DNA from: Escherichia coli
GTDB lineage: Bacteria > Pseudomonadota > Gammaproteobacteria > Enterobacterales > Enterobacteriaceae
DNA length: 64,000 nt
NCBI RefSeq assembly: GCF_003334765.1
Contig: NZ_QOWT01000008.1
Direction: 5' to 3' (one strand)
Shown: positions 1,257 through 47,832 of the stretch, piece after piece
How positions within the stretch are numbered: position 1 is the stretch's first letter
How the letters are laid out: every line of letters begins with the position of its first letter
Notes under the pieces: model-generated
What the model saw: only the letters and a program-made list of their open reading frames with translations
The model's database searches: none
What the model was told of the DNA's origin: nothing
Translations under genes and position numbers: made by a program

Positions 1257-4200
1257 TTATTCCGGGCGCGGCTTCAGCGGGAAGCGGCGGCGCACCAGCA
1301 CAAAGAACAGCGGCACGAAGTAAATAGCCAGAATAGTGGCCGAAATCATCCCGCCCATTACGCCAGTACCCACCGCATGCTGACCACCGGAACCGGCACC
1401 CGTGCTGGTTGCCATTGGCAATACGCCGAAGATAAATGCCAGCGAGGTCATCAGAATCGGGCGTAAACGCTGACGGCAGGCGTGGAGCGTCGCTTCAAAC
1501 AGGTCGTGGCCTTTTTGGTTCATCTCGTTAGCAAACTCGACGATCAGGATGGCGTTTTTCGCCGATAAACCAATGACCGTTAACAGGCCCACCTGGAAGT
1601 AAACGTCGTTTTCCAGCCCGCGCATCCAGGTTGCCAGCAGCGCGCCGATTACCCCCAGCGGCACGACCAGCATTACCGAGAACGGCACCGACCAGCTTTC
1701 ATACAACGCAGCCAGACACAGGAATACCACCAGCAAGGAAATGGCGTACAGCGCCGGAGCCTGCGCGCCGGAAAGCCGCTCCTGATACGACATCGCCGTC
1801 CACTCCAGACCAAAGCCGTTTGGCAGCTGCTTCACTAACGATTCCATAATATCCATCGCCGTACCGGTACTGACCCCCGGTGCGGCTTCCCCAACAATCT
1901 CAACCGCAGAATAACCGTTATAGCGTTCCAGACGCGGCGAGCCTGTTTCCCAGCGTGAGGTCGCGAAAGCAGAGAAGGGCACCATGCCGCCATCTTTATT
2001 TCGGACATACCAGAGATTGATGTCATCTGGCAGCATGCGATACGGCGCAGCTGCCTGCACATAGACTTTCTTCACGCGACCGCGATCCATAAAGTCATTC
2101 ACATAGCTCGAACCCCAGGCGGTTTGCAGTGTGTCGTTAATATCGTCGATAGCAACGCCCAGCGCCTGAGCTTTACGCTGGTCGATATCAATCTGCAACT
2201 GCGGACTGTCGTCGAGGCCGTTATGGCGCACACGGGTTAGCTCCGGGTTTTCCGCCGCCAGCGCCAGCAACTGATTACTTGCTGCCATCAGCGCATCGTG
2301 ACCCGCTCCAGCGTGGTCCTGCAACTCCATATCAAAACCTGCAGAACTACCAAGACCGCTAATTGCTGGCGGGCTGCTGGCGATAACGCGAGCTTCTTTA
2401 ATTTGGTTAAACGCCTTCGTTGCACGCTCGATAATGGCAAACGAGGTGCCGGTCTTACTGTCGCGTTCGCTCCAGTCTTTCAGGCGGATAAACATTCGCG
2501 CCACGTTTTGCCCGTTACCCCCAGGGCCAGAACCAACGGTGGCAAACACCGACATGATGTTGTCTTTTTCATGGGTGAAGTAGTATTTCTCGATTTGCTC
2601 AACGACTTTCAGGGTCTGTTGTTGCGTTGAACCGCTGGGCAACTGTACCGAGGTAGTAAACATGCCACGGTCTTCCAGCGGTAAGAACGACGTCGGCAAA
2701 CGCAGGAACAGGAACACCATGCCGCCAAGCAGCAGGACATAAATCACAATCCAGCGCAGGCTACGGTGGAGAATTTTCGCCACCCCTTTTTCGTAGCGTT
2801 CGGCGTTGCGGTTAAACATCTGGTTAAACCAGGCAAAAAAGCCTTTTTGCCCATGATGCTCACCTTTTTTCAGTGGCTTAAGTAGTGTGGCACACAGAGC
2901 CGGAGTGAGGATCATCGCTACCAGTACTGACAGCACCATCGCCGCAACAATGGTAATAGAGAACTGGCGATAGATGGCACCGGTGGTGCCGCCGAAGAAG
3001 GCCATTGGTACAAATACCGCCGAAAGAACCATCGCAATCCCGACCAGTGCCCCCTGGATCTGCCCCATCGATTTACGTGTGGCTTCGCGAGGAGTGAGTC
3101 CTTCCTCACTCATAATACGTTCGACGTTTTCCACCACCACGATGGCGTCATCCACCAGCAGACCGATCGCCAGCACCATCGCGAACATGGTTAAGGTGTT
3201 GACGCTGTAACCGAAGGCGTAAAGTACGGAGAAGGTTCCCATCAACACCACCGGCACGGCGATAGTGGGTATCAGCGTGGCGCGGAAGTTTTGCAGGAAC
3301 AGATACATAACGAGGAAAACCAGAGCGATAGCTTCCAGCAGCGTTTTCACCACGTCTTCAATGGAGGCTTTAACAAACGAGGTGGTTTCATACGCCACCT
3401 TGTATTCCAGTCCATGCGGGAAATACTGCGCCAGCTCGTCGAGACGATTGAGCACCAGCTCCGCTGTCGCCATTTCGTTAGCGCCGGAGGCCAGTTTTAC
3501 CCCCAGCCCGGAGGCTGGCTTACCATTGAAGCGGCTAAGATAATCGTATTTCTCCGCCCCCATTTCGACGGTGGCGACATCGCCCAGCCTTACCTCTGAG
3601 CCGTCCTGATTGACCCGCAAGGTGATATCGCGGAACTGTTCTGGTGTTTGCAGCAGTGACTGGGCGTTAATGGTGGCGTTGAGCGCCTGCTTATCGACGG
3701 AAGGTGTACCACCAAGTTGCCCAACCGCAATCTGCGCGTTCTGTGACTCAATGGCATCAGTGACATCTTTAGCCGTCATCTGGAAACTGTTGAGTTTCGC
3801 CGGGTCCAGCCAGATACGCATGGAATATTGCGAACCATAGGCATCGATATCCCCGACGCCATTCACGCGGCTTAACGGGTCCTGAATATTACTGGCAACA
3901 TAATCAGCAATATCCTGTTTATCCATCGAACCATCGGTAGAGACGAAGGCAATGGTCAGAATGTTGGTATCGCCGGTTTTACGCACCGTCACGCCCTGAT
4001 TTTGCACCGCCTGCGGTAACTTTCGCATGGCTGATTGCAGCTGGTTTTGTACTTGCTGCACGGCTTCGTCCGGATCGGTGCCTGCTTTAAAACTTAAAGT
4101 GACAGATGCCTGACCGGTGCCACTGCTCTGAGATGACATATACATGAGATTATCGAGGCCGGTCATATTTTGCTCGATAACCTGGGTCACGGTGTTTTCC

Positions 4201-4370
4201 AGCGTCTGGGCCGATGCGCCGGGATAGTTAGCGGTCACTCGCACATTCGGTGGCGCGAGATCGGGGTATTGTTCAACGGGCAATGAAAAAATCGCCAGGG
4301 TACCTGTCAGACACAACAGGATTGCCAGCACCCAGGCAAAAATGGGGCGATCAATAAAGAAATTCGCCAT
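1257..4370 (-). CDS. acrD: RND-family aminoglycoside efflux pump AcrD
   Basis: 1037-aa ORF, 12-TM RND transporter recognised as AcrD; ATG at 4368-4370. Confidence 0.96.
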
Positions 4371-4533
4371 TAAAAGAGGACCTCGTGTTTCTGCGTATCG
4401 TTGTAGGCTTGACTTGCTTCACTGTAGCGGCAAGGTACGAGCCAATCGTGGAGAAAAAAAGGAGTTAATGTAAATTATCATGCCCTTTTATACTGAACCT
4501 TAAGTGCAAGTATTCTTTGGTCAGTAGGAGGCA

Positions 4534-6234
4534 TTACATTAACTGACTTTCCTCACCCTCCGCAGAGCGAAAGCTAATACTCACTAACGTGCCGCCGCCG
4601 GAAGGTTGTGAAAAAGTCAGCGTCCCACCTAGCCGTTCCGCGCGTTCGCGCATGATATTCAGACCATAATGACCTTCGGGTTCTTTCGGTTCACCGATAC
4701 CAATCCCGTTATCACGGATATAAACCGTGTGATTGCCGTCCGGCGCGGTGACGCAACTGACGGCGATTTCGCTGGCGTTGGCGTGCTTCATCGCATTCAG
4801 CACCGCTTCGCGAATAATTTGCAACAAATGCACCTGCATTTGCGCATCCAGTGCCAGGGTTGGCAGACGGCAGTCGAGGGTCAGTTTGGCGCTGGTTTGA
4901 TTTTGTAACGTATCCAGCATTTCCCTCAATGCGGAGGGGAGATCCGCCTGCTGCAGCGTCAGGCGGAAAGTAGTCAACAGCTCGCGTAACTGCCGATAAG
5001 CATCATTCAACGCCTGGGAAAAATCGGCCATGATACTTTGTGCGGTGGCGTTATCTTCCGGTATCGAACGCTTCAGTAACGTCAACTGGATACGTAAGTA
5101 AGAAAGTACCTGAGCCAGCGAGTCGTGCAATTCGCGGGCGATGGTCGCACGTTCTTCCATCAACAATAATTGCTGAAAATGCTTCTGCGCCTGATTAAAG
5201 TACAAACCGCGTCCCAGCATCGACGAAACGCTGTTAAGCAGCGGTTCTGATGATGAAACGTGACTATTTTGCCAGTGCAGTTCGCCGTAAACCGTCTCTT
5301 GCATTGTCACCGGTAAAATCTGCATCGGCAATTCCGGGTTTGGTTGCCCTTCGCTAATCCGCCAGTTTTCACCGACATTTAACTCCAGATATTCAGCCGC
5401 TTCATTGTCGCGAACAATCTGCAAAATATGGCGGAAACAATGCACATCAATCTGGCTAGTGTTCAGCGCCTGCGAACACTGATACAACACCTCCAGACGA
5501 CGCTTGGCCTCGTGGAGATCGCGGGTCTTTTCTTCTACTGACGCTTCCAGCGAACGGTACAATTTATGCAGCTCGCTCGACATCTGGTTAAAGGTTTTTG
5601 CAAGCAGACCAAGCTCATTCGGCAGGTTGGTATCCAGCGGCGGCGAGTCGAACTGCCCGTGTTCAATACGCTGACTGGCGGTAACCAGCTGATTCAGCGG
5701 GGCAACCACCTGATGGCGTATGCGGCGCAAAGTAAAAAAGACCAGCGTGAAAATACCGATGCCGCCAGCCAGGGAAATCGCCACCACCAGCAGCATTTTG
5801 CGTTCAGCGTAGTGCTGTAAAGCCAGTACGAACAGGTCTATCTGATTAACATAATTATTAATATTGGCCTGATACCACGGCAAATCGCCCTTGCTGAGCC
5901 GATTATTCATCTCCAGCCAGTTGGCATTCAGATGCGCATAGCGAGTTTTTACTGCTTCTGGCACATACCAGACGTTGAGGTTGGTTAATACCGGTGAATG
6001 CAGTGCCTGCTGAAATAACTGGCGATGTGCATTGAGTTGTGGACTGCCACTTTGCAAGTCGTAGCCCAGGCGGTAACTCTGCATACGCAGCGATCCGGCA
6101 ATATTGATAGCCTCAGCGTCGCGCAAACTGCTCGCCAGAGTTAGCAGAGCGATACCCGTGGAAAGAATCGACAGCAGCACAATGTAAAAAAAGGCCCGGG
6201 CCAGACTGGCCGAGACGGGTCGTTTAACAATCAC
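4534..6234 (-). CDS. narQ: nitrate/nitrite sensor histidine kinase NarQ
   Basis: ORF-track protein minus 5 N-terminal residues; inferred GTG start at 6234 gives 566 aa beginning (M)IVKRPVSASLARAFF; C-terminal HATPase domain. Confidence 0.92.
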   Translation of the reverse strand: MIVKRPVSASLARAFFYIVLLSILSTGIALLTLASSLRDAEAINIAGSLRMQSYRLGYDLQSGSPQLNAHRQLFQQALHSPVLTNLNVWYVPEAVKTRYAHLNANWLEMNNRLSKGDLPWYQANINNYVNQIDLFVLALQHYAERKMLLVVAISLAGGIGIFTLVFFTLRRIRHQVVAPLNQLVTASQRIEHGQFDSPPLDTNLPNELGLLAKTFNQMSSELHKLYRSLEASVEEKTRDLHEAKRRLEVLYQCSQALNTSQIDVHCFRHILQIVRDNEAAEYLELNVGENWRISEGQPNPELPMQILPVTMQETVYGELHWQNSHVSSSEPLLNSVSSMLGRGLYFNQAQKHFQQLLLMEERATIARELHDSLAQVLSYLRIQLTLLKRSIPEDNATAQSIMADFSQALNDAYRQLRELLTTFRLTLQQADLPSALREMLDTLQNQTSAKLTLDCRLPTLALDAQMQVHLLQIIREAVLNAMKHANASEIAVSCVTAPDGNHTVYIRDNGIGIGEPKEPEGHYGLNIMRERAERLGGTLTFSQPSGGGTLVSISFRSAEGEESQLM

Positions 6235-6439
6235 ACGCGTCTTCTCCACAAAAAATCATTAATGTTCCAGTTCGCTGAAACGCAATTTAGTCAGTGATGG
6301 GATTATTTGATCTGCCACAGTTTATAGCGAAATAGTTACTTATTCTGGGCACATGAACATTGCCGATTCCCCTGTAAGTCGGGTAATAACAACACTCATA
6401 TAAAGAATAAGGTTTTTACAACCAAAAAAGAAGGTCGTT

Positions 6440-8419
6440 ATGAATCGTTTTATTATGGCCAACAGTCAGCAATGTCTGGGTTGTCATGCTTGTGAAATCG
6501 CCTGTGTCATGGCTCACAATGATGAGCAACATGTCCTGAGCCAACACCATTTTCATCCCCGAATTACGGTTATCAAACATCAACAGCAACGTAGTGCAGT
6601 GACCTGTCACCATTGTGAAGATGCGCCCTGCGCCCGTAGCTGCCCTAATGGCGCAATCAGCCACGTTGATGACAGCATTCAGGTCAATCAGCAAAAGTGT
6701 ATTGGCTGTAAATCCTGCGTGGTGGCCTGTCCTTTTGGTACGATGCAAATCGTCCTGACACCCGTCGCGGCAGGAAAAGTAAAAGCCACGGCGCATAAAT
6801 GCGACCTTTGTGCGGGGCGCGAAAACGGTCCTGCCTGTGTTGAGAATTGCCCGGCGGACGCGCTGCAACTGGTCACTGACGTCGCACTCTCCGGCATGGC
6901 GAAATCCCGCCGCTTGCGCACCGCGCGTCAGGAACATCAACCGTGGCATGCCAGTACCGCGGCGCAAGAAATGCCGGTAATGAGTAAAGTCGAACAAATG
7001 CAGGCAACGCCCGCGCGTGGCGAGCCGGATAAACTGGCGATTGAAGCGCGCAAAACCGGTTTTGATGAAATTTATCTGCCATTTCGCGCCGACCAGGCAC
7101 AACGGGAAGCCTCGCGCTGCCTTAAGTGCGGCGAGCACAGCGTTTGTGAATGGACCTGCCCGCTGCATAACCATATACCGCAGTGGATTGAACTGGTGAA
7201 AGCCGGAAACATCGACGCCGCCGTCGAGCTTTCTCACCAGACCAACACCCTGCCGGAAATTACCGGACGCGTTTGTCCGCAAGACCGTTTGTGTGAAGGT
7301 GCCTGTACTATTCGCGATGAGCACGGCGCGGTAACTATCGGCAACATTGAACGCTACATTTCAGATCAGGCGTTGGCGAAAGGTTGGCGTCCTGACTTAA
7401 GCCATGTCACCAAAGTGGACAAGCGGGTGGCGATTATCGGTGCAGGTCCGGCAGGGCTGGCCTGTGCGGATGTTCTGACCCGCAATGGCGTGGGGGTGAC
7501 GGTGTACGATCGCCATCCAGAAATCGGTGGCTTGCTCACTTTCGGCATTCCTTCTTTCAAACTGGATAAATCCCTGCTGGCACGCCGTCGGGAAATCTTC
7601 AGCGCGATGGGGATTCACTTCGAACTCAATTGTGAAGTGGGTAAAGATGTCTCTTTGGATTCGCTTTTGGAACAATACGACGCGGTCTTCGTTGGCGTAG
7701 GCACTTACCGTTCCATGAAAGCGGGTTTACCCAATGAAGATGCGCCGGGCGTTTATGACGCGCTGCCGTTCCTCATTGCCAACACTAAACAGGTGATGGG
7801 GCTCGAAGAGCTACCGGAAGAGCCGTTTATCAATACCGCCGGACTTAACGTCGTGGTACTGGGCGGCGGCGACACCGCGATGGACTGTGTGCGTACCGCA
7901 CTGCGCCACGGCGCGAGTAACGTCACCTGCGCTTATCGTCGTGATGAAGCTAACATGCCAGGCTCGAAGAAAGAAGTGAAGAACGCCCGCGAAGAGGGGG
8001 CCAACTTCGAATTTAACGTCCAGCCGGTGGCGCTTGAGCTGAATGAACAAGGTCACGTCTGCGGGATTCGTTTCCTGCGCACGCGTCTTGGAGAGCCGGA
8101 TGCCCAGGGGCGTCGGCGTCCAGTGCCGGTGGAAGGCAGTGAATTTGTCATGCCAGCCGACGCGGTGATTATGGCGTTTGGCTTCAATCCGCACGGGATG
8201 CCGTGGCTGGAGTCGCACGGTGTAACGGTAGACAAATGGGGCCGCATCATCGCGGATGTGGAAAGCCAGTACCGTTACCAGACCACCAATCCGAAAATCT
8301 TCGCTGGTGGTGACGCCGTGCGTGGTGCGGATCTGGTGGTTACCGCAATGGCAGAAGGACGTCATGCGGCACAGGGGATTATTGACTGGCTGGGGGTAAA
8401 ATCAGTCAAATCTCACTGA
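6440..8419 (+). CDS. aegA: Fe-S oxidoreductase AegA (ferredoxin-like N-terminus fused to GltD-like NAD(P)/FAD domain)
   Basis: 659 aa; four CxxCxxCxxxCP motifs and a VAIIGAGPAGLA dinucleotide-binding motif visible; AAGAAGG RBS before ATG 6440. Confidence 0.93.
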   Translation: MNRFIMANSQQCLGCHACEIACVMAHNDEQHVLSQHHFHPRITVIKHQQQRSAVTCHHCEDAPCARSCPNGAISHVDDSIQVNQQKCIGCKSCVVACPFGTMQIVLTPVAAGKVKATAHKCDLCAGRENGPACVENCPADALQLVTDVALSGMAKSRRLRTARQEHQPWHASTAAQEMPVMSKVEQMQATPARGEPDKLAIEARKTGFDEIYLPFRADQAQREASRCLKCGEHSVCEWTCPLHNHIPQWIELVKAGNIDAAVELSHQTNTLPEITGRVCPQDRLCEGACTIRDEHGAVTIGNIERYISDQALAKGWRPDLSHVTKVDKRVAIIGAGPAGLACADVLTRNGVGVTVYDRHPEIGGLLTFGIPSFKLDKSLLARRREIFSAMGIHFELNCEVGKDVSLDSLLEQYDAVFVGVGTYRSMKAGLPNEDAPGVYDALPFLIANTKQVMGLEELPEEPFINTAGLNVVVLGGGDTAMDCVRTALRHGASNVTCAYRRDEANMPGSKKEVKNAREEGANFEFNVQPVALELNEQGHVCGIRFLRTRLGEPDAQGRRRPVPVEGSEFVMPADAVIMAFGFNPHGMPWLESHGVTVDKWGRIIADVESQYRYQTTNPKIFAGGDAVRGADLVVTAMAEGRHAAQGIIDWLGVKSVKSH

Positions 8420-8486
8420 TAGCCTGCGCAGACAAACCCGACTTCACAGCGTAAGATAATTGTTCATTTCGCGCTGTGGAGTCGGT

Positions 8487-9062
8487 ATGACGCAACAAAT
8501 CACCCTCATTAAAGACAAAATTCTCTCCGATAACTATTTCACCCTGCACAACATTACTTACGATCTCACGCGCAAAGACGGCGAAGTTATCCGCCATAAA
8601 CGTGAAGTGTACGATCGCGGCAATGGTGCGACGATCCTCCTGTACAACACGAAGAAAAAGACCGTGGTTCTGATTCGTCAGTTCCGTGTCGCTACCTGGG
8701 TTAATGGCAATGAAAGCGGGCAGCTGATTGAAAGCTGCGCCGGGCTGCTGGATAACGACGAACCGGAAGTGTGTATTCGCAAAGAAGCGATTGAAGAGAC
8801 GGGCTATGAAGTGGGTGAAGTGCGCAAATTATTTGAACTGTATATGTCGCCAGGCGGTGTGACTGAGCTAATCCACTTTTTTATCGCCGAATACAGTGAC
8901 AATCAGCGCGCTAACGCCGGTGGCGGTGTCGAAGATGAAGATATTGAAGTGCTCGAGCTGCCGTTCAGCCAGGCGCTGGAGATGATCAAAACCGGCGAGA
9001 TACGTGACGGTAAGACGGTGTTATTGCTTAACTATTTGCAAACGTCACATTTAATGGACTGA
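8487..9062 (+). CDS. nudK: Nudix hydrolase NudK (GDP-mannose pyrophosphatase)
   Basis: Internal start [11 protein letters not shown] gives 191 aa; ORF-track start 8460 is an upstream extension. Confidence 0.9.
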
Positions 9063-9187
9063 AAAATAACAATAATATTTCGTTGTTTATTATTGGCTCA
9101 ATCCGACAAATCCGATTGAGCCGCGCTACCTGCGCAACGAAGATACGACTTGTGCTGTTTGTTTGAACTTCTGGGGTCGTACCGTCC

Positions 9188-10231
9188 ATGCGCTATCGCA
9201 TTTTCCTTCTCTTTTTTTTCGCTTTGTTGCCGACGTCTTTGGTGTGGGCGGCACCAGCGCAACGGGCGTTTTCCGACTGGCAGGTCACCTGTAATAACCA
9301 AAATTTCTGCGTGGCGCGTAATACGGGCGATCATAATGGACTGGTGATGACCCTGAGCCGCAGCGCCGGGGCGCATACCGATGCCGTTTTACGTATTGAG
9401 CGCGGCGGATTGAAGTCGCCGGAGGCGTCAGAAGGGGAGATAGCGCCACGGCTGCTGTTAGATGGCGAGCCGTTGGCGTTAAGTGGTGACAAGTGGCGGA
9501 TTTCACCATGGTTATTAGTAACCGATGATACGGCAACCATCACCGCGTTTTTGCAGATGATTCAGGAAGGGAAGGCAATCACCTTACGCGATGGCGATCA
9601 GACCATTTCTCTGAGTGGCTTAAAAGCAGCGTTGTTGTTTATTGATGCTCAGCAAAAGCGCGTTGGCAGTGAAACCGCGTGGATCAAGAAAGGGGACGAA
9701 CCGCCGCTCAGCGTACCGCCCGCGCCTGCGCTGAAAGAGGTCGCGGTGGTTAACCCAACGCCGACGCCACTCTCACTCGAAGAACGCAACGATTTGCTGG
9801 ATTATGGAAACTGGCGGATGAATGGTCTGCGCTGCTCGCTTGATCCATTGCGTCGTGAGGTGAATGTCACTGCGCTGACTGATGATAAAGCGCTGATGAT
9901 GATTAGCTGTGAGGCAGGGGCCTATAACACCATTGATTTGGCATGGATTGTGTCGCGTAAAAAGCCACTAGCTTCGCGCCCGGTTCGGTTGCGTTTGCCG
10001 TTCAACAACGGTCAGGAGACGAATGAACTGGAACTGATGAACGCAACATTTGATGAGAAATCGCGTGAACTGGTGACCTTAGCGAAAGGGCGCGGATTAA
10101 GCGATTGTGGCATTCAGGCGCGCTGGCGCTTTGACGGTCAGCGTTTTCGCCTGGTGCGTTACGCCGCAGAACCCACCTGCGATAACTGGCATGGGCCAGA
10201 CGCCTGGCCCACGTTGTGGATCACCCGTTAA
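9188..10231 (+). CDS. ypfG: uncharacterised exported protein YpfG (DUF1176-type)
   Basis: 347 aa with N-terminal signal peptide MRYRIFLLFFFALLPTSLVWAAP. Confidence 0.85.
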   Translation: MRYRIFLLFFFALLPTSLVWAAPAQRAFSDWQVTCNNQNFCVARNTGDHNGLVMTLSRSAGAHTDAVLRIERGGLKSPEASEGEIAPRLLLDGEPLALSGDKWRISPWLLVTDDTATITAFLQMIQEGKAITLRDGDQTISLSGLKAALLFIDAQQKRVGSETAWIKKGDEPPLSVPPAPALKEVAVVNPTPTPLSLEERNDLLDYGNWRMNGLRCSLDPLRREVNVTALTDDKALMMISCEAGAYNTIDLAWIVSRKKPLASRPVRLRLPFNNGQETNELELMNATFDEKSRELVTLAKGRGLSDCGIQARWRFDGQRFRLVRYAAEPTCDNWHGPDAWPTLWITR

Positions 10232-10235
10232 ACAA

Positions 10236-10325
10236 AATGGCGGGACATGTAGGCCGGATAAGACGCTGTAGGCCGGATAAGACGCGTCAGCGTCGCATCC
10301 GGCAATCAGCATCCGGCAATCACCA
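10236..10325. repeat. REP cluster (tandem GTAGGCCGGATAAGACGC units plus GCATCCGGCAATC units)
   Basis: Imperfect palindromic REP motifs read directly between convergent ypfG and tktB. Confidence 0.7.
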
Positions 10326-12329
10326 TCAGGCACCTTTCACTCCCAGCACCTTATGCGCTTTTGCCACAATATTCTCGGCGGTAAAGCCAAAGAACGGGAA
10401 CAGCTTATCCGCCGGAGCAGATTCCCCGTAACCCGTCATCCCGACAATTGCCCCTTTCAGACCAACATACTTGTACCAGTAATCGGCAATACCTGCTTCC
10501 ACCGCCACGCGAGCCGCAACGTTAGAAGGCAACACCGACTCCCGATATTCCTCATCCTGGGCGTCGAAAATATCGGTCGAGGGCAGGGAAACTACGCGTA
10601 CATTGCGACCTTCTCCTGCTAATTTCTCTGCCGCTTGCAGGGTAATTTCCATCTCTGAACCGGTGGCAATCAGAATAATATCTGGCTTACCGCCGCTGTC
10701 TTTCAGCACATAACCGCCACGAGCAATCTCTTTAACCTGATCCGGCGTACGTTCCACCTGGGCCAGATTCTGCCTTGAGAGGATCAGTGCCGTCGGTCCG
10801 TTGTGGCGCTCAACCGCCAGCTTCCAGCCCACCGCCGCTTCCACCTGATCGCACGGTCGCCAGGTGCTGAAATTTGGCGTTAAGCGCAGGCTGGCCAGTT
10901 GCTCAACAGCCTGGTGCGTCGGACCATCTTCGCCCAGGCCAATTGAGTCGTGGGTATAAACCATAATCTGCCGCGCTTTCATCAGTGCCGCCATCCGCGC
11001 GGCGTTACGGGCGTATTCAACAAACATCAGGAACGTCGCGGTATACGGCACAAAGCCGCCGTGGTGCGCGATGCCGTTGGCGATAGCGGTCATGCCAAAT
11101 TCACGCACCCCGTAGTGAATGTAGTTGCCCGCTGGATCTTCCTTCAGCGAAACAGAACCTTTCCAGATGGTCAGGTTGCTGGGAGCCAGATCCGCCGAAC
11201 CGCCGAGCAACTCAGGCAGCATCGGCCCGTAAGCGTTAAGCGTATTTTGCGAAGCCTTACGGGTAGCGATTTTCGCCGGATTTGCCTGTAACTCATTGAT
11301 ATATTTCTGAGTCGTTTTCTCCCAGTCCTTCGGTAAACCACCGCTCATCCGTCGGGTAAACTCTTCTGCCAGTTGCGGATGAGCCTTTTTATAGGCGGCA
11401 AACTTCTCATTCCAGCTCTGCTGCGCTTTTTCGCCTTTTTCACGGGCATCCCAGGCGTGATAAATCTCTTTAGGGATCTCAAATGGCGGATGGTGCCAGC
11501 CCAGTTTTTGCCGTGCCAGCGCCACTTCTTCTTCCCCCAGTGGTGCGCCGTGCGCCTCTTCCTTACCTGCTTTATTCGGCGAACCAAAGCCAATCACCGT
11601 ACGGCAGATAATCAGCGACGGCTTATCTTTCACGCTTTGCGCTTCAAGGATCGCTTCCTTCACCGCCTGCGGATCGTGACCGTCGATTTCATGGATCACA
11701 TGCCAGTGATAGGCTTCAAAACGTTTTGCCGTATCGTCGGTAAACCAGCCTTCTGTTTCACCGTCGATGGAAATACCGTTGTGATCGTAAAAACCAATCA
11801 GCTTGCCCAGTCCCAGCGTGCCTGCCAGCGAACAGACTTCGTGGGAAATACCTTCCATCAGGCAGCCGTCGCCCATAAACACATAGGTGAAGTGATCGAC
11901 GATCTCATGGTCTGGCTGGTTAAACTGCGCCGCCAGTGTACGCTCTGCTATCGCCAGCCCGACGGCGTTCGCCAAACCTTGTCCAAGCGGGCCGGTGGTG
12001 GTTTCAACGCCTGGCGTATAGCCAATCTCCGGGTGGCCTGGGGTTTTCGAATGCAACTGACGGAAGTTCTTCAGTTCTTCCAGCGGCAGGTCGTAACCGG
12101 TCAGATGTAGCAAACTGTAGAGCAGCATCGACGCGTGACCGTTGGAAAGAATAAAGCGGTCGCGATCATACCAGGTTGGGTCGGTAGGGTTATGTTTAAG
12201 AAAATCGTTCCACAGCACTTCGGCAATATCAGCCATGCCCATCGGCGCGCCGGGATGACCAGAGTTGGCTTTTTGTACCGCATCCATACTGAGTGCGCGA
12301 ATCGCATTGGCAAGGTCTTTTCGGGACAT
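10326..12329 (-). CDS. tktB: transketolase 2
   Basis: Internal start [21 protein letters not shown] gives 667 aa; ORF-track start 12392 is an extension. Confidence 0.95.
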
Positions 12330-12348
12330 ATAACACTCCGTGGCTGGT

Positions 12349-13299
12349 TTATAGTTTGGCGGCAAGAAGATCTTCCAGTTTGCGTTGATCAACGGCGAAC
12401 AGACGAATGCCTTCAGACAGTTTTTCTACCGCCATCGCATCCTGATTGTGCTCCCAACGGAACTCCGCTTCGCTCATGGGAGCTGGGCGTGGGAACGTCT
12501 GAGAAGGTGGGATTAATTTACGTACCACTGGCGAAACTTTTTCCTGCAGCTCCTTCAGTAAATTCGGTGCGATAGTCAGTCGATCGCAGCCGGTTAAGGC
12601 GAGGATTTGTTCGGTGCGACGGAAGCTCGCGCCCATCACAATGGTTTCATAGTGGTGTTGCTTATAGTAGTCGTAGATATTGCGCACCGATTTAACGCCC
12701 GGATCTTCTTCCACCACATACGGGTCCATCGGCTTGCGTGCCTGATACCAGTCATAAATACGCCCGACAAACGGCGAAATCAGAAAAACGCCTGCTTCCG
12801 CACAGGCCCGTGCCTGTGCAAAAGAAAACAGCAGCGTCAGGTTGCAGTTAATACCTTCTTTTTCCAGCTCTTCTGCCGCGCGAATTCCTTCCCAGGTCGA
12901 AGCCAGCTTGATCAGAATGCGTGATTTCTCAACGCCTTGTTGCTGATACAAGTCCACCAGATGGCGCGCCTTCTCAATACTCTTTTCTTTATCAAAAGAG
13001 AGGCGTGCATCAACTTCTGTTGACACGCGACCGGGTACGATTTTGAGGATTTCAGCACCGAAATTGACCGCCAGTTTGTCACACGCTGCGACCACCTGTT
13101 GTTCCTGGGTCTTGCCATTTTTTTTACCCCAGGCGATAGCATCGTCTATTAAATGCTCATATTGTGATAATCCGGCAGCTTTGAGTAACAGCGAAGGATT
13201 GGTGGTGGCATCCTGGGGATGATAATGGCGAATGGACTCAATATCGCCGCTGTCTGCCACGACAGTGGTGAACTGTTTGATGCCGTCTAACTCGTTCAT
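12349..13299 (-). CDS. talA: transaldolase A
   Basis: 316 aa recognised as TalA; 19-nt gap to tktB start, so a talA-tktB operon. Confidence 0.95.
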
Positions 13300-45590: not shown

Positions 45591-46502
45591 GTGAGTACAT
45601 TAGAACAAACAATAGGCAATACGCCTCTGGTGAAGTTGCAGCGAATGGGGCCGGATAACGGCAGTGAAGTGTGGTTAAAACTGGAAGGCAATAACCCGGC
45701 AGGTTCGGTGAAAGATCGTGCGGCACTTTCGATGATCGTCGAGGCGGAAAAGCGCGGGGAAATTAAACCGGGTGATGTCTTAATCGAAGCCACCAGTGGT
45801 AACACCGGCATTGCGCTGGCAATGATTGCCGCGCTGAAAGGCTATCGCATGAAATTGCTGATGCCCGACAACATGAGCCAGGAACGCCGTGCGGCGATGC
45901 GTGCTTATGGTGCGGAACTGATTCTTGTCACCAAAGAGCAGGGCATGGAAGGTGCGCGCGATCTGGCGCTGGAGATGGCGAATCGTGGCGAAGGAAAGCT
46001 GCTCGATCAGTTCAATAATCCCGATAACCCTTATGCGCATTACACCACCACTGGGCCGGAAATCTGGCAGCAAACCGGCGGGCGCATCACTCATTTTGTC
46101 TCCAGCATGGGGACGACCGGCACTATCACCGGCGTCTCACGCTTTATGCGCGAACAATCCAAACCGGTGACCATTGTCGGCCTGCAACCGGAAGAGGGCA
46201 GCAGCATTCCCGGCATTCGCCGCTGGCCTACGGAATATCTGCCGGGGATTTTCAACGCTTCTCTGGTGGATGAGGTGCTGGATATTCATCAGCGCGATGC
46301 GGAAAACACCATGCGCGAACTGGCGGTGCGGGAAGGAATATTCTGTGGCGTCAGCTCCGGCGGCGCGGTTGCCGGAGCACTGCGGGTGGCAAAAGCTAAC
46401 CCTGACGCGGTGGTGGTGGCGATCATCTGCGATCGTGGCGATCGCTACCTTTCTACCGGGGTGTTTGGGGAAGAGCATTTTAGCCAGGGGGCGGGGATTT
46501 AA
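45591..46502 (+). CDS. cysM: cysteine synthase B (O-acetylserine sulfhydrylase B)
   Basis: GTG start 45591 gives 303 aa starting (M)STLEQTIGNTPLVKLQRM; PLP lysine motif SVKDR. Confidence 0.92.
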   Translation: MSTLEQTIGNTPLVKLQRMGPDNGSEVWLKLEGNNPAGSVKDRAALSMIVEAEKRGEIKPGDVLIEATSGNTGIALAMIAALKGYRMKLLMPDNMSQERRAAMRAYGAELILVTKEQGMEGARDLALEMANRGEGKLLDQFNNPDNPYAHYTTTGPEIWQQTGGRITHFVSSMGTTGTITGVSRFMREQSKPVTIVGLQPEEGSSIPGIRRWPTEYLPGIFNASLVDEVLDIHQRDAENTMRELAVREGIFCGVSSGGAVAGALRVAKANPDAVVVAIICDRGDRYLSTGVFGEEHFSQGAGI

Positions 46503-46541
46503 GGATTAATAGCATCGGAGACTGATGACAAACGCAAAACT

Positions 46542-46639
<98 letters not shown>

Positions 46640-46690
46640 ATAAACAAAGCGCACTTTTTTAACAGTTGTTGCTGCCGACAAATGCAGTAT

Positions 46691-47425
46691 TTAATTTTCG
46701 TGAGGAAACGCCGTAAGGTCATCAATCATTTTTTGAAGTATTGGTGAGTCCTGACCGTCACCCCATTGAAGAATTTTTGCGGTAAGCTGATGACGCGCTA
46801 GTGCATTGAGTCCCATCTTTTTAAGTTTATGGGAGATTTTACCCATGACTTTAATCTGACCGAATGCAGTTGCGTAGGTAATCATATTGCTCTGGATAGT
46901 GCTCATTTCATCGACTAGTAATTGCGCACGAACATCCTCTTCAAGAATACTGTCCATAGCGATGTATTTCATACCCCACATAGTTTCAATTAACATTTGA
47001 GGGAAATCAGCACAGTCCAGATCCGGCTCTTTACGGAGGCTATTTTCAAGAACGTTTAGAGCATCAGCACCTTCATCGCTGCCAAAAGGAGATTCTTCAT
47101 CCCAGCAACACATATAAAGTGGATCAGTAAAATGGCACTGGAAGTTTGGGTGTGACGTTTTAACATGTAACCCAATTTCTTCATCATCAAAATAGTAGCG
47201 ATCCATGAAGTTAAACTTTGGATCTTCTTGATAGCCTTTCTTCATTTTTGCGGCAATCAATTTACTGGCTTCTTTCAGACACTGTTCTTCATTATCGAAC
47301 TCTTTTGTCTGGAATTTACCAATACTACCTACCTTGCCATAGTTGACAGCTAAACTATCCCCTTCGTAATCTATCCACCAAAATTTATTCGATTTTTCAT
47401 CGTGATAAATAAAGCGTTTTTTCAT
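46691..47425 (-). CDS. yfeS: WGR-domain protein YfeS (function unknown)
   Basis: 244 aa; N-terminal WGR-like region (KFWWIDYEGDSLAVNYGKVGSIGK...KGY); coding sequence visibly AT-rich. Confidence 0.85.
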   Translation of the reverse strand: MKKRFIYHDEKSNKFWWIDYEGDSLAVNYGKVGSIGKFQTKEFDNEEQCLKEASKLIAAKMKKGYQEDPKFNFMDRYYFDDEEIGLHVKTSHPNFQCHFTDPLYMCCWDEESPFGSDEGADALNVLENSLRKEPDLDCADFPQMLIETMWGMKYIAMDSILEEDVRAQLLVDEMSTIQSNMITYATAFGQIKVMGKISHKLKKMGLNALARHQLTAKILQWGDGQDSPILQKMIDDLTAFPHEN

Positions 47426-47457
47426 GTTACCTCCTGTAAATGCCTTCCCAAAGCGGA

Positions 47458-47832
47458 TTAATTTCCTTCCGCAGGCACCGTTTTATCCGTCTGCGCAATT
47501 AACGCATGTAAAAAAGGCTGTGCGTTCTCATCGCTCTTACCGGGGATCTTCACAATATACGGCTTCCCAGTAATCGATGACGACGAAGCAACCTTATCAA
47601 TAAACTGCTCGGCAGTGTCAATGCGGTTACGGGTATTGCCGAGCTTCAGACGCAGATGAGAAACCGCTTCATAGCAGGTATGTTCATCACCGTTGCGCAC
47701 AAATATCAAATCCTTTTTCTGTGCTAATCCCTCCAGCATGGCGTTGATGCGGGCTTCTTCATGGGCAGTTAACTTCGCGTAAACGGGGAGTGTCATTAGT
47801 AGTGTAATGACCAGACAAATGATTTTCTTCAT
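47458..47832 (-). CDS. yfeK: small exported protein YfeK (function unknown)
   Basis: 124 aa; signal peptide [19 protein letters not shown]; 32 nt upstream of yfeS on the same strand. Confidence 0.8.

Follow-up and report, generated by a model that had tools for sequence, protein, structure and literature searches.

Are yfeS and yfeK, two small neighboring genes of Escherichia coli, the halves of one functional unit, or did one of them arrive separately and come to rest beside the other? The question is posed by positions 46691-47832 of a 64,000-nt stretch of E. coli contig NZ_QOWT01000008.1 (the window, to which all coordinates without a locus label refer), where the gene order is of the K-12 type, cysPUWAM / yfeS / yfeK / pdxK / crr / ptsI. 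In the literature found, yfeS is taken for an operon partner of yfeK that encodes an uncharacterised 'conserved' protein, and neither a link to immunity arrays nor its accessory status appeared in the literature searched. An earlier note on this DNA had taken the two genes for an AT-rich, separately acquired module joining a cytoplasmic protein to an exported one. Two adjacent minus-strand open reading frames (ORFs) are indeed found there (Table 1). However, our analyses indicate that yfeS is very probably a laterally acquired single-gene insert and not a partner of yfeK. For the whole reading, in which yfeS is a laterally acquired orphan cassette of immunity type and there is no yfeK module, we put the probability at about 0.5.

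A strain-variable insert beside a core gene

Within a sample of 5426 complete E. coli genomes, yfeS was present in 1387 (25.6%), and a probe across the yfeS-less junction recovered cysM and yfeK as continuous in the complementary 4039. The convergent cysM and yfeK stop codons of the yfeS-less genomes are 2 nt apart; alignment set 966 bp (46504-47469) of the occupied allele against 7 bp (ATTATTG) in the empty one, with the same junctions in the K-12, BL21, and AST85 alleles. Base composition also set yfeS apart. Specifically, its GC content was 0.392 and its GC at third codon positions (GC3) 0.367, as compared to GC of 0.52-0.59 in cysW, cysA, cysM, and pdxK and GC3 of 0.51-0.74 in the flanks, while yfeK (GC 0.464, GC3 0.512) was on par with crr (0.473 and 0.535) and ptsI (0.497 and 0.512). 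AT richness is thus confined to yfeS, and what had been supposed for the pair holds for one gene and fails for the other. A local codon-adaptation index gave no separation of yfeS (0.60) from pdxK (0.61) or yfeK (0.57); GC3 does separate them. Because its GC and GC3 are low, its presence is limited to 25.6% of genomes, and the closest named relatives come from Firmicutes and Bacteroidota, not from enterobacteria, we regard yfeS as foreign, and separate acquisition can be upheld for yfeS and not for the vertically inherited yfeK. Neither gene combined neighbor-like GC with a known housekeeping function, the outcome that the earlier note had named as refuting it; the GC of yfeK is ordinary and its function unassigned.

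YfeK itself matched DUF5329 (PF17263, E 5.6e-31) and the NCBIfam model NF007646 (PRK10318; 276.7 bits, cutoff 171), and is the K-12 type member of this family with its sigma-E promoter present. By direct inspection its N-terminus reads as a Sec signal peptide with cleavage before KL, in agreement with the cleavable signal predicted earlier. Orthologues were found in Pseudocitrobacter (85% identity), Klebsiella (77-82%), Salmonella (74%), and Enterobacter (70%), with an overall range of 64-85%. YfeK is a core gene inherited vertically across the Enterobacteriaceae, separate from yfeS, and its product is a periplasmic protein of the sigma-E regulon with no assigned function. Published work lists yfeK among characterised sigma-E promoters (PMC3326320), and it is also a target of the small RNA MicA in the literature. 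The two genes were not co-inherited as a module would be, given that yfeK stands alone in 4039/5426 E. coli and has other neighbors in Salmonella and Klebsiella. Moreover, the yfeK/pdxK spacer, which had been read as a bracket formed by the divergent pdxK promoter, holds yfeK's own sigma-E promoter.

Shared transcription in K-12 is a separate matter. A sigma-E type promoter upstream of yfeK and a 32-bp yfeK-yfeS gap without a terminator are what a sigma-E operon is expected to have; an operon under yfeKp has been stated (PMC11502571), and sigma-E induction raises yfeK and yfeS together (PMC2685091; PMC6850105). Co-transcription is thus supported by the spacer, the promoter, and the published co-induction. 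Because the insert has its own ribosome-binding site but no promoter, and no terminator lies upstream, yfeS would be expressed in K-12 by read-through from the yfeK sigma-E promoter. That the two genes adjoin each other in K-12 reflects the landing place of the insert, and we caution that yfeK phenotypes and sigma-E regulon membership are not properties of a two-gene unit.

With respect to the history of the insert, the 8-bp sequence GGATTAAT stands at both edges of the segment, yet simple recombination between these repeats would not yield the empty allele, and for this reason the direction of the indel (gain or loss) stays open. The C-terminus of YfeK is dimorphic, ending ...TVPAEGN (124 aa) in yfeS-bearing E. 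coli and ...TVPAQ (122 aa) in empty-site E. coli (window 47458-47475, the yfeK 3' end; L001:1606-1620). Both endings also occur in Pseudocitrobacter (P0098, P0107), so that the empty site could be ancestral or a deletion.

Among three diverged intact alleles, yfeS had synonymous divergence (dS) of 0.06-0.12 and a ratio of nonsynonymous to synonymous divergence (dN/dS) of 0.16-0.31, as compared to dN/dS of 0.01-0.09 for flanking genes. From these values yfeS appears to be long-resident and under purifying selection, with looser constraint than its neighbors. Between K-12 and AST85 (L022, 1790-5003), the flanking cysM, yfeK, and pdxK had dS of 0.27-0.34 and yfeS only 0.06, which suggests that the insert may have passed between diverged Escherichia backgrounds by homologous recombination.

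The space between yfeK and cysM is occupied differently in other genera. In Salmonella it holds a 116-aa protein without a Pfam family (L015:3876-4226), and in Klebsiella a SnoaL-like protein (L016:3898-4293). The slot (window 46503-47457) thus contains another co-directional small gene in each genus, yfeS in the K-12 type, and nothing in most E. coli, and genes seem to have landed or turned over repeatedly at the 3' end of yfeK, a gene driven by sigma-E.

Relatives of YfeS in immunity-gene arrays

No relative of YfeS was found in another named enterobacterium, and none exceeded 65% identity outside E. coli. The best match beyond E. coli variants, at 65%, was on a 1.1-kb contig; the best named relatives were from Paenibacillus (56-58%) and Dysgonomonas (54%), followed by Lysinibacillus and Clostridium, for an overall range of 45-58%. 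Large clusters of relatives came from Bacteroides, Phocaeicola, Parabacteroides, and Muribaculaceae, which documents gene sharing between dominant gut anaerobes and E. coli. A search of 2.9 million viral contigs returned no YfeS relative, and a phage collection only short Listeria records; because no viral contig carried a relative, we do not regard yfeS as phage-borne. Two candidates for copies elsewhere were rejected. P0003 (89% identical), at first sight a yfeS from another species, is an E. coli yfeS allele that has lost 84 bp in frame, and a 70%-identical 'plasmid' copy on NZ_CP098226.1 (L024) lies in a frameshift-ridden chromosomal fragment.

The genomic surroundings of these relatives were of a consistent kind. 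In four related contigs (L005-L008), a 54% identical homologue (P0026) is found in an array that begins with a 379-aa tyrosine recombinase (Phage_integrase/SAM-like) and continues with co-directional short genes, among them Imm10, Imm19, Barstar, SUKH, DUF4304, DUF6678, Macro, and Cys_rich_CPCC. The GC of the L005 array is 0.323, and in its positions 1500-12729 an imperfect palindromic element of about 50 nt, TAACAA...CATTA(G/T), flanks every cassette, the yfeS-like one included. These elements are analogous to integron attC sites; two cassettes of the same array (1600-1899 and 4048-4347) are exact duplicates. The Paenibacillus copies adjoin Imm10, DUF2750 (= Imm16), SUKH, and DUF1963, the Clostridium-type copy adjoins WapI and Cys_rich_CPCC, and the L019 copy adjoins SUKH.

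A metagenome scan yielded 65 non-E. coli loci, many with 8-19 co-directional short ORFs; runs of 9-19 co-directional genes occurred in L060, L063, L069, L076, and L079, and integron-like repeats also in L060, L068, and L069. A census of metagenomic loci using tblastn with marker proteins proved too insensitive, and we relied on Pfam scans of the pooled non-redundant neighbors (149 + 46, 195 in total), the batch of 149 being ORFs within 3.5 kb of a homologue. The families listed included Phage_integrase (6), SUKH (4-5), Imm43 (3), DUF6707 (3), Imm33 (2), Tdi1 (2), Ank (2), and GrpB (2), and the second, more diverse batch of 46 contributed DUF4240, Cass2, GNAT, and DUF1963. The arrays therefore also carry genes that are not classical immunity proteins, namely Macro, GrpB, NUDIX, GNAT, Cass2, and DUF4240. 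Tandem co-directional arrays with known immunity families were present at L003, L005-L008, L012, L014, and L019; the E. coli copy, L004, L017, and L020 lie outside such arrays. The family that joins a WGR domain to the C-terminal part of YfeS (YfeS_C) is a mobile cassette at home in immunity-gene arrays of gut Bacteroidales, Clostridia, and Paenibacillus. DUF5329 was not beside YfeS homologues outside E. coli, either in the 14 loci with precomputed Pfam assignments or among the top-20 families listed for the 195 metagenomic neighbors; given also that yfeK occurs without yfeS, the suggested cytoplasmic and exported functional pair is not borne out.

Two known kinds of locus resemble these arrays. 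In rAID-1 loci (recombinase-associated acquired interbacterial defence; Ross et al., 10.1101/471110; PMC12247911), a tyrosine recombinase of XerD-like type lies 5' of at least two co-directional genes with GC of at most 41% and integron-like intergenic repeats, and heterogeneous polyimmunity loci store orphan immunity genes that act on toxins delivered by contact (Zhang et al. 2012, PMC3482391). Similarly, YfeS homologues that share 52-56% identity occur as cassettes of arrays in which a tyrosine recombinase stands at the 5' end, and the arrays consist of co-directional genes of about 100-300 codons with GC of at most 41%, integron-like repeats, and adjoining known immunity families. The E. 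coli yfeS shares the low GC (39%), the absence of a signal peptide, and the sporadic distribution. Unlike in those systems, however, the E. coli copy is solitary, without recombinase, repeats, or immunity-gene neighbors, and YfeS has no known toxin and is unusually well conserved. Further, Zhang et al. do not list the YfeS family among their Imm families, and neither they nor the rAID paper mention WGR.

Several homologues stood in other settings. The Dysgonomonas copy is inside a trp operon, with an MFS gene on one side and trpC on the other (L004:6001-6732). One YfeS-like gene lies some 1.8 kb upstream of brxC, a BREX gene (L067:2463-8533), and another, on a mobilisable element, some 0.7 kb downstream of a MobV relaxase (L061:5338-8088). 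Standalone YfeS_C homologues of 184-186 aa occur in Listeria, including a 184-aa protein of Listeria monocytogenes between rlmD and aroK (shikimate kinase; L026:4986-5540). A single-gene insert of about 550 bp in this species, LMOf2365_0481, is present in about 55% of strains at the lmo0443-lmo0449 hypervariable hot spot and has been described with a DUF 'often associated with WGR' (PMC5541211). The Listeria homologue that we located sits at a different locus, rlmD/aroK; LMOf2365_0481 may be its paralogue.

The YfeS protein and its possible functions

Residues 9-71 of YfeS matched Pfam WGR (PF05406, E 1.2e-17), as the earlier note had anticipated, and a WGR match was found in 60/60 homologues. 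Solved structures related to YfeS cover the WGR part only, specifically 2ra8 (Bacteroides fragilis, WGR+LRR) and the WGR domain of PARP3. The position of the W-G-R motif reads Y29-G30-K31 in YfeS, a departure from strict Trp-Gly-Arg; within the family, G30 never varies and K31 hardly does, and the substitutions are conservative. The WGR domains of PARP1/2/3, 2ra8 (Q64V53), and MolR (WGR+DUF4132) have the same fold and the same N-terminal place in a two-part protein, and 2ra8 is 44% identical to YfeS over WGR with the Y-G-K variant included. The WGR partner in YfeS, in contrast, is YfeS_C and not LRR, DUF4132, or a PARP catalytic domain. The roughly 175 residues after WGR had no Pfam, PDB-sequence, or PDB-fold relative, extending what the earlier note had said of a C-terminus without recognisable motifs.

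An AlphaFold2 model built with 60 homologues (pLDDT 96, pTM 0.93) places WGR at residues 1-62 and an all-helical domain at 93-240, joined by a conserved extended segment; the part outside WGR is acidic (pI 4.6). Outside WGR, three motifs are invariant across phyla, T90-S-H92-P, P113-F-G-S-D117-E-G-x-D121, and Q190-I-K192-x-x-G195, and such conservation might point to a site for catalysis or for a ligand. A profile built on residues 70-244 only collected 691 clusters at 50% identity, with architectures comprising WGR fusions (about 240 aa), standalone proteins (about 170-190 aa), and other fusions in which the partner was DUF4253, DUF4240, or a weak Imm26-like N-terminal segment (E 0.15, one protein). 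YfeS_C is a mobile, previously undescribed helical domain that defines a sizeable family outside Pfam. Foldseek added full-length relatives in Neisseria, Moraxella, Pseudomonas, Campylobacter, and Paraprevotella, as well as standalone YfeS_C proteins to which public records give the name 'MolR family transcriptional regulator'. E. coli MolR (WGR + DUF4132) matches YfeS residues 3-74 only, the WGR part, and the 'MolR' labels seem to have been copied over as names rather than established by tests. No helix-turn-helix (HTH) or other DNA-binding domain was found in YfeS, which also has no signal peptide; PADLOC had no match for YfeS or YfeK, and PHROGs matched only the WGR part of YfeS.

How might an orphan immunity-type cassette have come to work in E. 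coli? We propose that the 966-bp segment, consisting of a bacterial interspersed mosaic element (BIME), yfeS, and the spacer, settled between the convergent stops of cysM and yfeK, and that yfeS would have arrived with its own strong ribosome-binding site and no promoter, placing it under read-through from yfeK upon envelope stress (sigma-E). YfeS would then act as a cytoplasmic orphan protein of immunity type that neutralises an incoming toxin active in the cytoplasm. Because of the WGR domain, and because the neighboring immunity families have nuclease and deaminase specificity, nucleic acids would be the most plausible target. The gene has the sporadic distribution, lateral transfer, and strain-level presence and absence expected of immunity proteins. 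The conflict role that the earlier note had raised as speculation is accordingly plausible for yfeS, with its homologues in polyimmunity/rAID arrays, and not for the pair; for an immunity function as such, our estimate falls a little short of even. What is gained is a re-annotation, in which one of the remaining E. coli K-12 genes of unknown function becomes a strain-variable foreign cassette, and a testable hypothesis, that yfeS protects against contact-delivered toxins, and no new kind of system.

Several points weigh against this reading. The immunity role rests on guilt by association, and solitary homologues exist (Dysgonomonas in the trp operon, L004; L017/L018; Listeria, L020; E. coli itself). 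A toxin gene was not found beside any homologue in a limited sampling, the large neighboring ORFs being aconitase, AlaRS, GatA, MobV, and BrxC, and the Pfam scans of the metagenomic neighbors named no toxin family, nor did YfeS match a described Imm/SUKH/SuFu Pfam family or a PADLOC model. With its 45-58% cross-phylum identity and invariant motifs, YfeS is more conserved than is usual for immunity proteins. The E. coli insert revealed neither a rAID-type TAACAA...CATTA repeat nor a recombinase, and gain versus loss of the 966-bp segment is not settled. Additionally, yfeS overexpression has no phenotype (PMC2685091), and the sole reported phenotype is boric-acid sensitivity of a yfeS deletion, partly complemented (PMC11502571); complementation raised the minimal inhibitory concentration from 45 to 65 mM, as compared to 100 mM in the wild type. 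Because no toxin and no Imm similarity were found and cross-phylum conservation is strong, an enzymatic or a substrate-side mechanism retains some weight.

The cassette protein could be an enzyme, or a binder of small ligands or nucleic acids, that serves stress tolerance and merely co-travels with immunity genes. Its invariant polar motifs and cross-phylum identity would fit such a role, as would the boric-acid sensitivity of the deletion, the Macro, GrpB, NUDIX, GNAT, Cass2, and DUF4240 genes held in the same arrays, and the fact that no cognate toxin was found among large neighboring ORFs. We consider it unlikely, given that YfeS lacks fold or sequence likeness to any enzyme, the boric-acid complementation was only partial, and the neighbors are enriched for bona fide immunity families.

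Somewhat less probable is that YfeS serves, through its WGR domain, as a regulator that binds nucleic acids or as a sensor of DNA damage, like PARP or as assumed for MolR. The WGR fold is genuine, standalone YfeS_C proteins bear the 'MolR family' label, and DNA damage by restriction enzymes raises yfeS transcripts (PMC2685091). However, sigma-E activation of the upstream promoter explains that induction, MolR and YfeS have only WGR in common, and the labels were apparently transferred. The Y-G-K in place of W-G-R, the acidic C-terminal part, the absence of a detected HTH or other DNA-binding domain, and the accessory nature of a gene missing in 74% of strains further argue against regulation.

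More doubtful again is a broad-spectrum, substrate-side protection against nucleic-acid-targeting toxins, in which WGR-YfeS_C binds no particular toxin. Under this scheme, WGR, as in PARP, would detect nucleic-acid ends that are damaged or modified, and the TSHP / PFGSDEGxD site would shield or repair them. Such a mechanism would explain the 45-58% identity between E. coli, Bacteroides, and Paenibacillus, the orphan state without a cognate toxin, and the company of Macro, NUDIX, and GrpB cassettes.

That the E. coli gene is a decaying hitch-hiker without present function is improbable. In its favor, truncated YfeS clusters of 208, 184, and 155 aa are common in protein databases (123-155 members each, versus 1186 for full-length), Shigella flexneri has fragmented copies, strain LR-03 carries an IS1 insertion, the 84-bp in-frame deletion allele exists, and overexpression is neutral. 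Yet 1383/1387 carriers keep at least 80% of the gene, dN/dS is 0.16-0.31 among the three diverged intact alleles at dS of up to 0.12, and a deletion phenotype has been published (PMC11502571). The 84-bp deletion (L021:6001-6651) lies between repeated GATGA(T/A)GAAGAA (DDEE / DEES) stretches, and the allele is without the invariant TSHP segment.

Finally, an exported-plus-cytoplasmic yfeK-yfeS module, for which one may cite the shared strand, the 32-bp gap, the single sigma-E promoter, the co-induction, and a superficial toxin/antidote likeness in that yfeK overexpression arrests growth and yfeS overexpression does not (PMC2685091), is highly improbable in light of the differing compositions, the lack of DUF5329 beside YfeS homologues outside E. 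coli in the loci and listed families examined, and the independent phyletic patterns, with yfeK lacking yfeS in 4039/5426 E. coli and in the examined Salmonella and Klebsiella loci, and with yfeS-less strains keeping an intact yfeK, so that YfeS is not needed to tolerate YfeK.

Features of the locus

The coordinates of the features are collected in Table 1.

Table 1. Features in and around the yfeS-yfeK region of the window.
Feature	Position	Strand	Basis and remarks
cysM (cysteine synthase B)	45591..46502	+	Left boundary gene, TAA stop 46500-46502; ORF list and RefSeq annotation of the same gene in L001/L022/L023
GGATTAAT, left copy of 8-bp direct repeat at segment edges	46503..46510	+	Sequence reading; same edges in BL21 and AST85 alleles
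Presence/absence segment, 966 bp	46504..47469	.	BIME, yfeS, 32-bp spacer, and last yfeK codons; alignment to empty-site genomes L001 and L002
BIME, two REP units inverted	46536..46647	.	Inverted repeats I1 and I2
Match to MarA-bound site gcaacaactgttaaa	46658..46672	-	Sequence identity to published ETEC site
yfeS, 244 aa	46691-47425	-	ORF list
yfeS C-terminal part YfeS_C, residues 70-244	46694..47218	-	AlphaFold2 secondary structure; no Pfam family
yfeS N-terminal WGR domain, residues 1-69	47219..47425	-	Pfam and structure matches
yfeK-yfeS spacer, 32 bp	47426..47457	-	Perfect AGGAGG Shine-Dalgarno 47435..47430; a terminator would not fit
yfeK, 124 aa, DUF5329	47458-47832	-	Signal peptide residues 1-19 (47776-47832)
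sigma-E promoter of yfeK(S), GAAACTT-N16-TCAAA	47893..47866	-	Sequence reading and literature
pdxK, divergent right boundary gene	47937..48788	+	ORF list and annotation

The BIME that the earlier note had placed on one side of the genes is present in the cysM-yfeS spacer as two inverted repetitive extragenic palindromic (REP) units, and the REP repeat of this spacer had a median of 39 occurrences in each E. coli genome. The rejected copy on NZ_CP098226.1 ('plasmid pZ0117EC0005-3', PLSDB) comprises a frameshift-ridden cysA-cysM-yfeS-yfeK-pdxK-crr-ptsI region, and looks like a mis-assembled or uncorrected long-read piece of chromosome, not a plasmid. A MarA site, gcaacaactgttaaa, has been reported from ChIP-seq in the yfeS><cysM spacer of enterotoxigenic E. 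coli (ETEC) H10407 (PMC5684230, Table); the matching sequence in the window lies inside the variable segment and is thus missing from yfeS-less strains.

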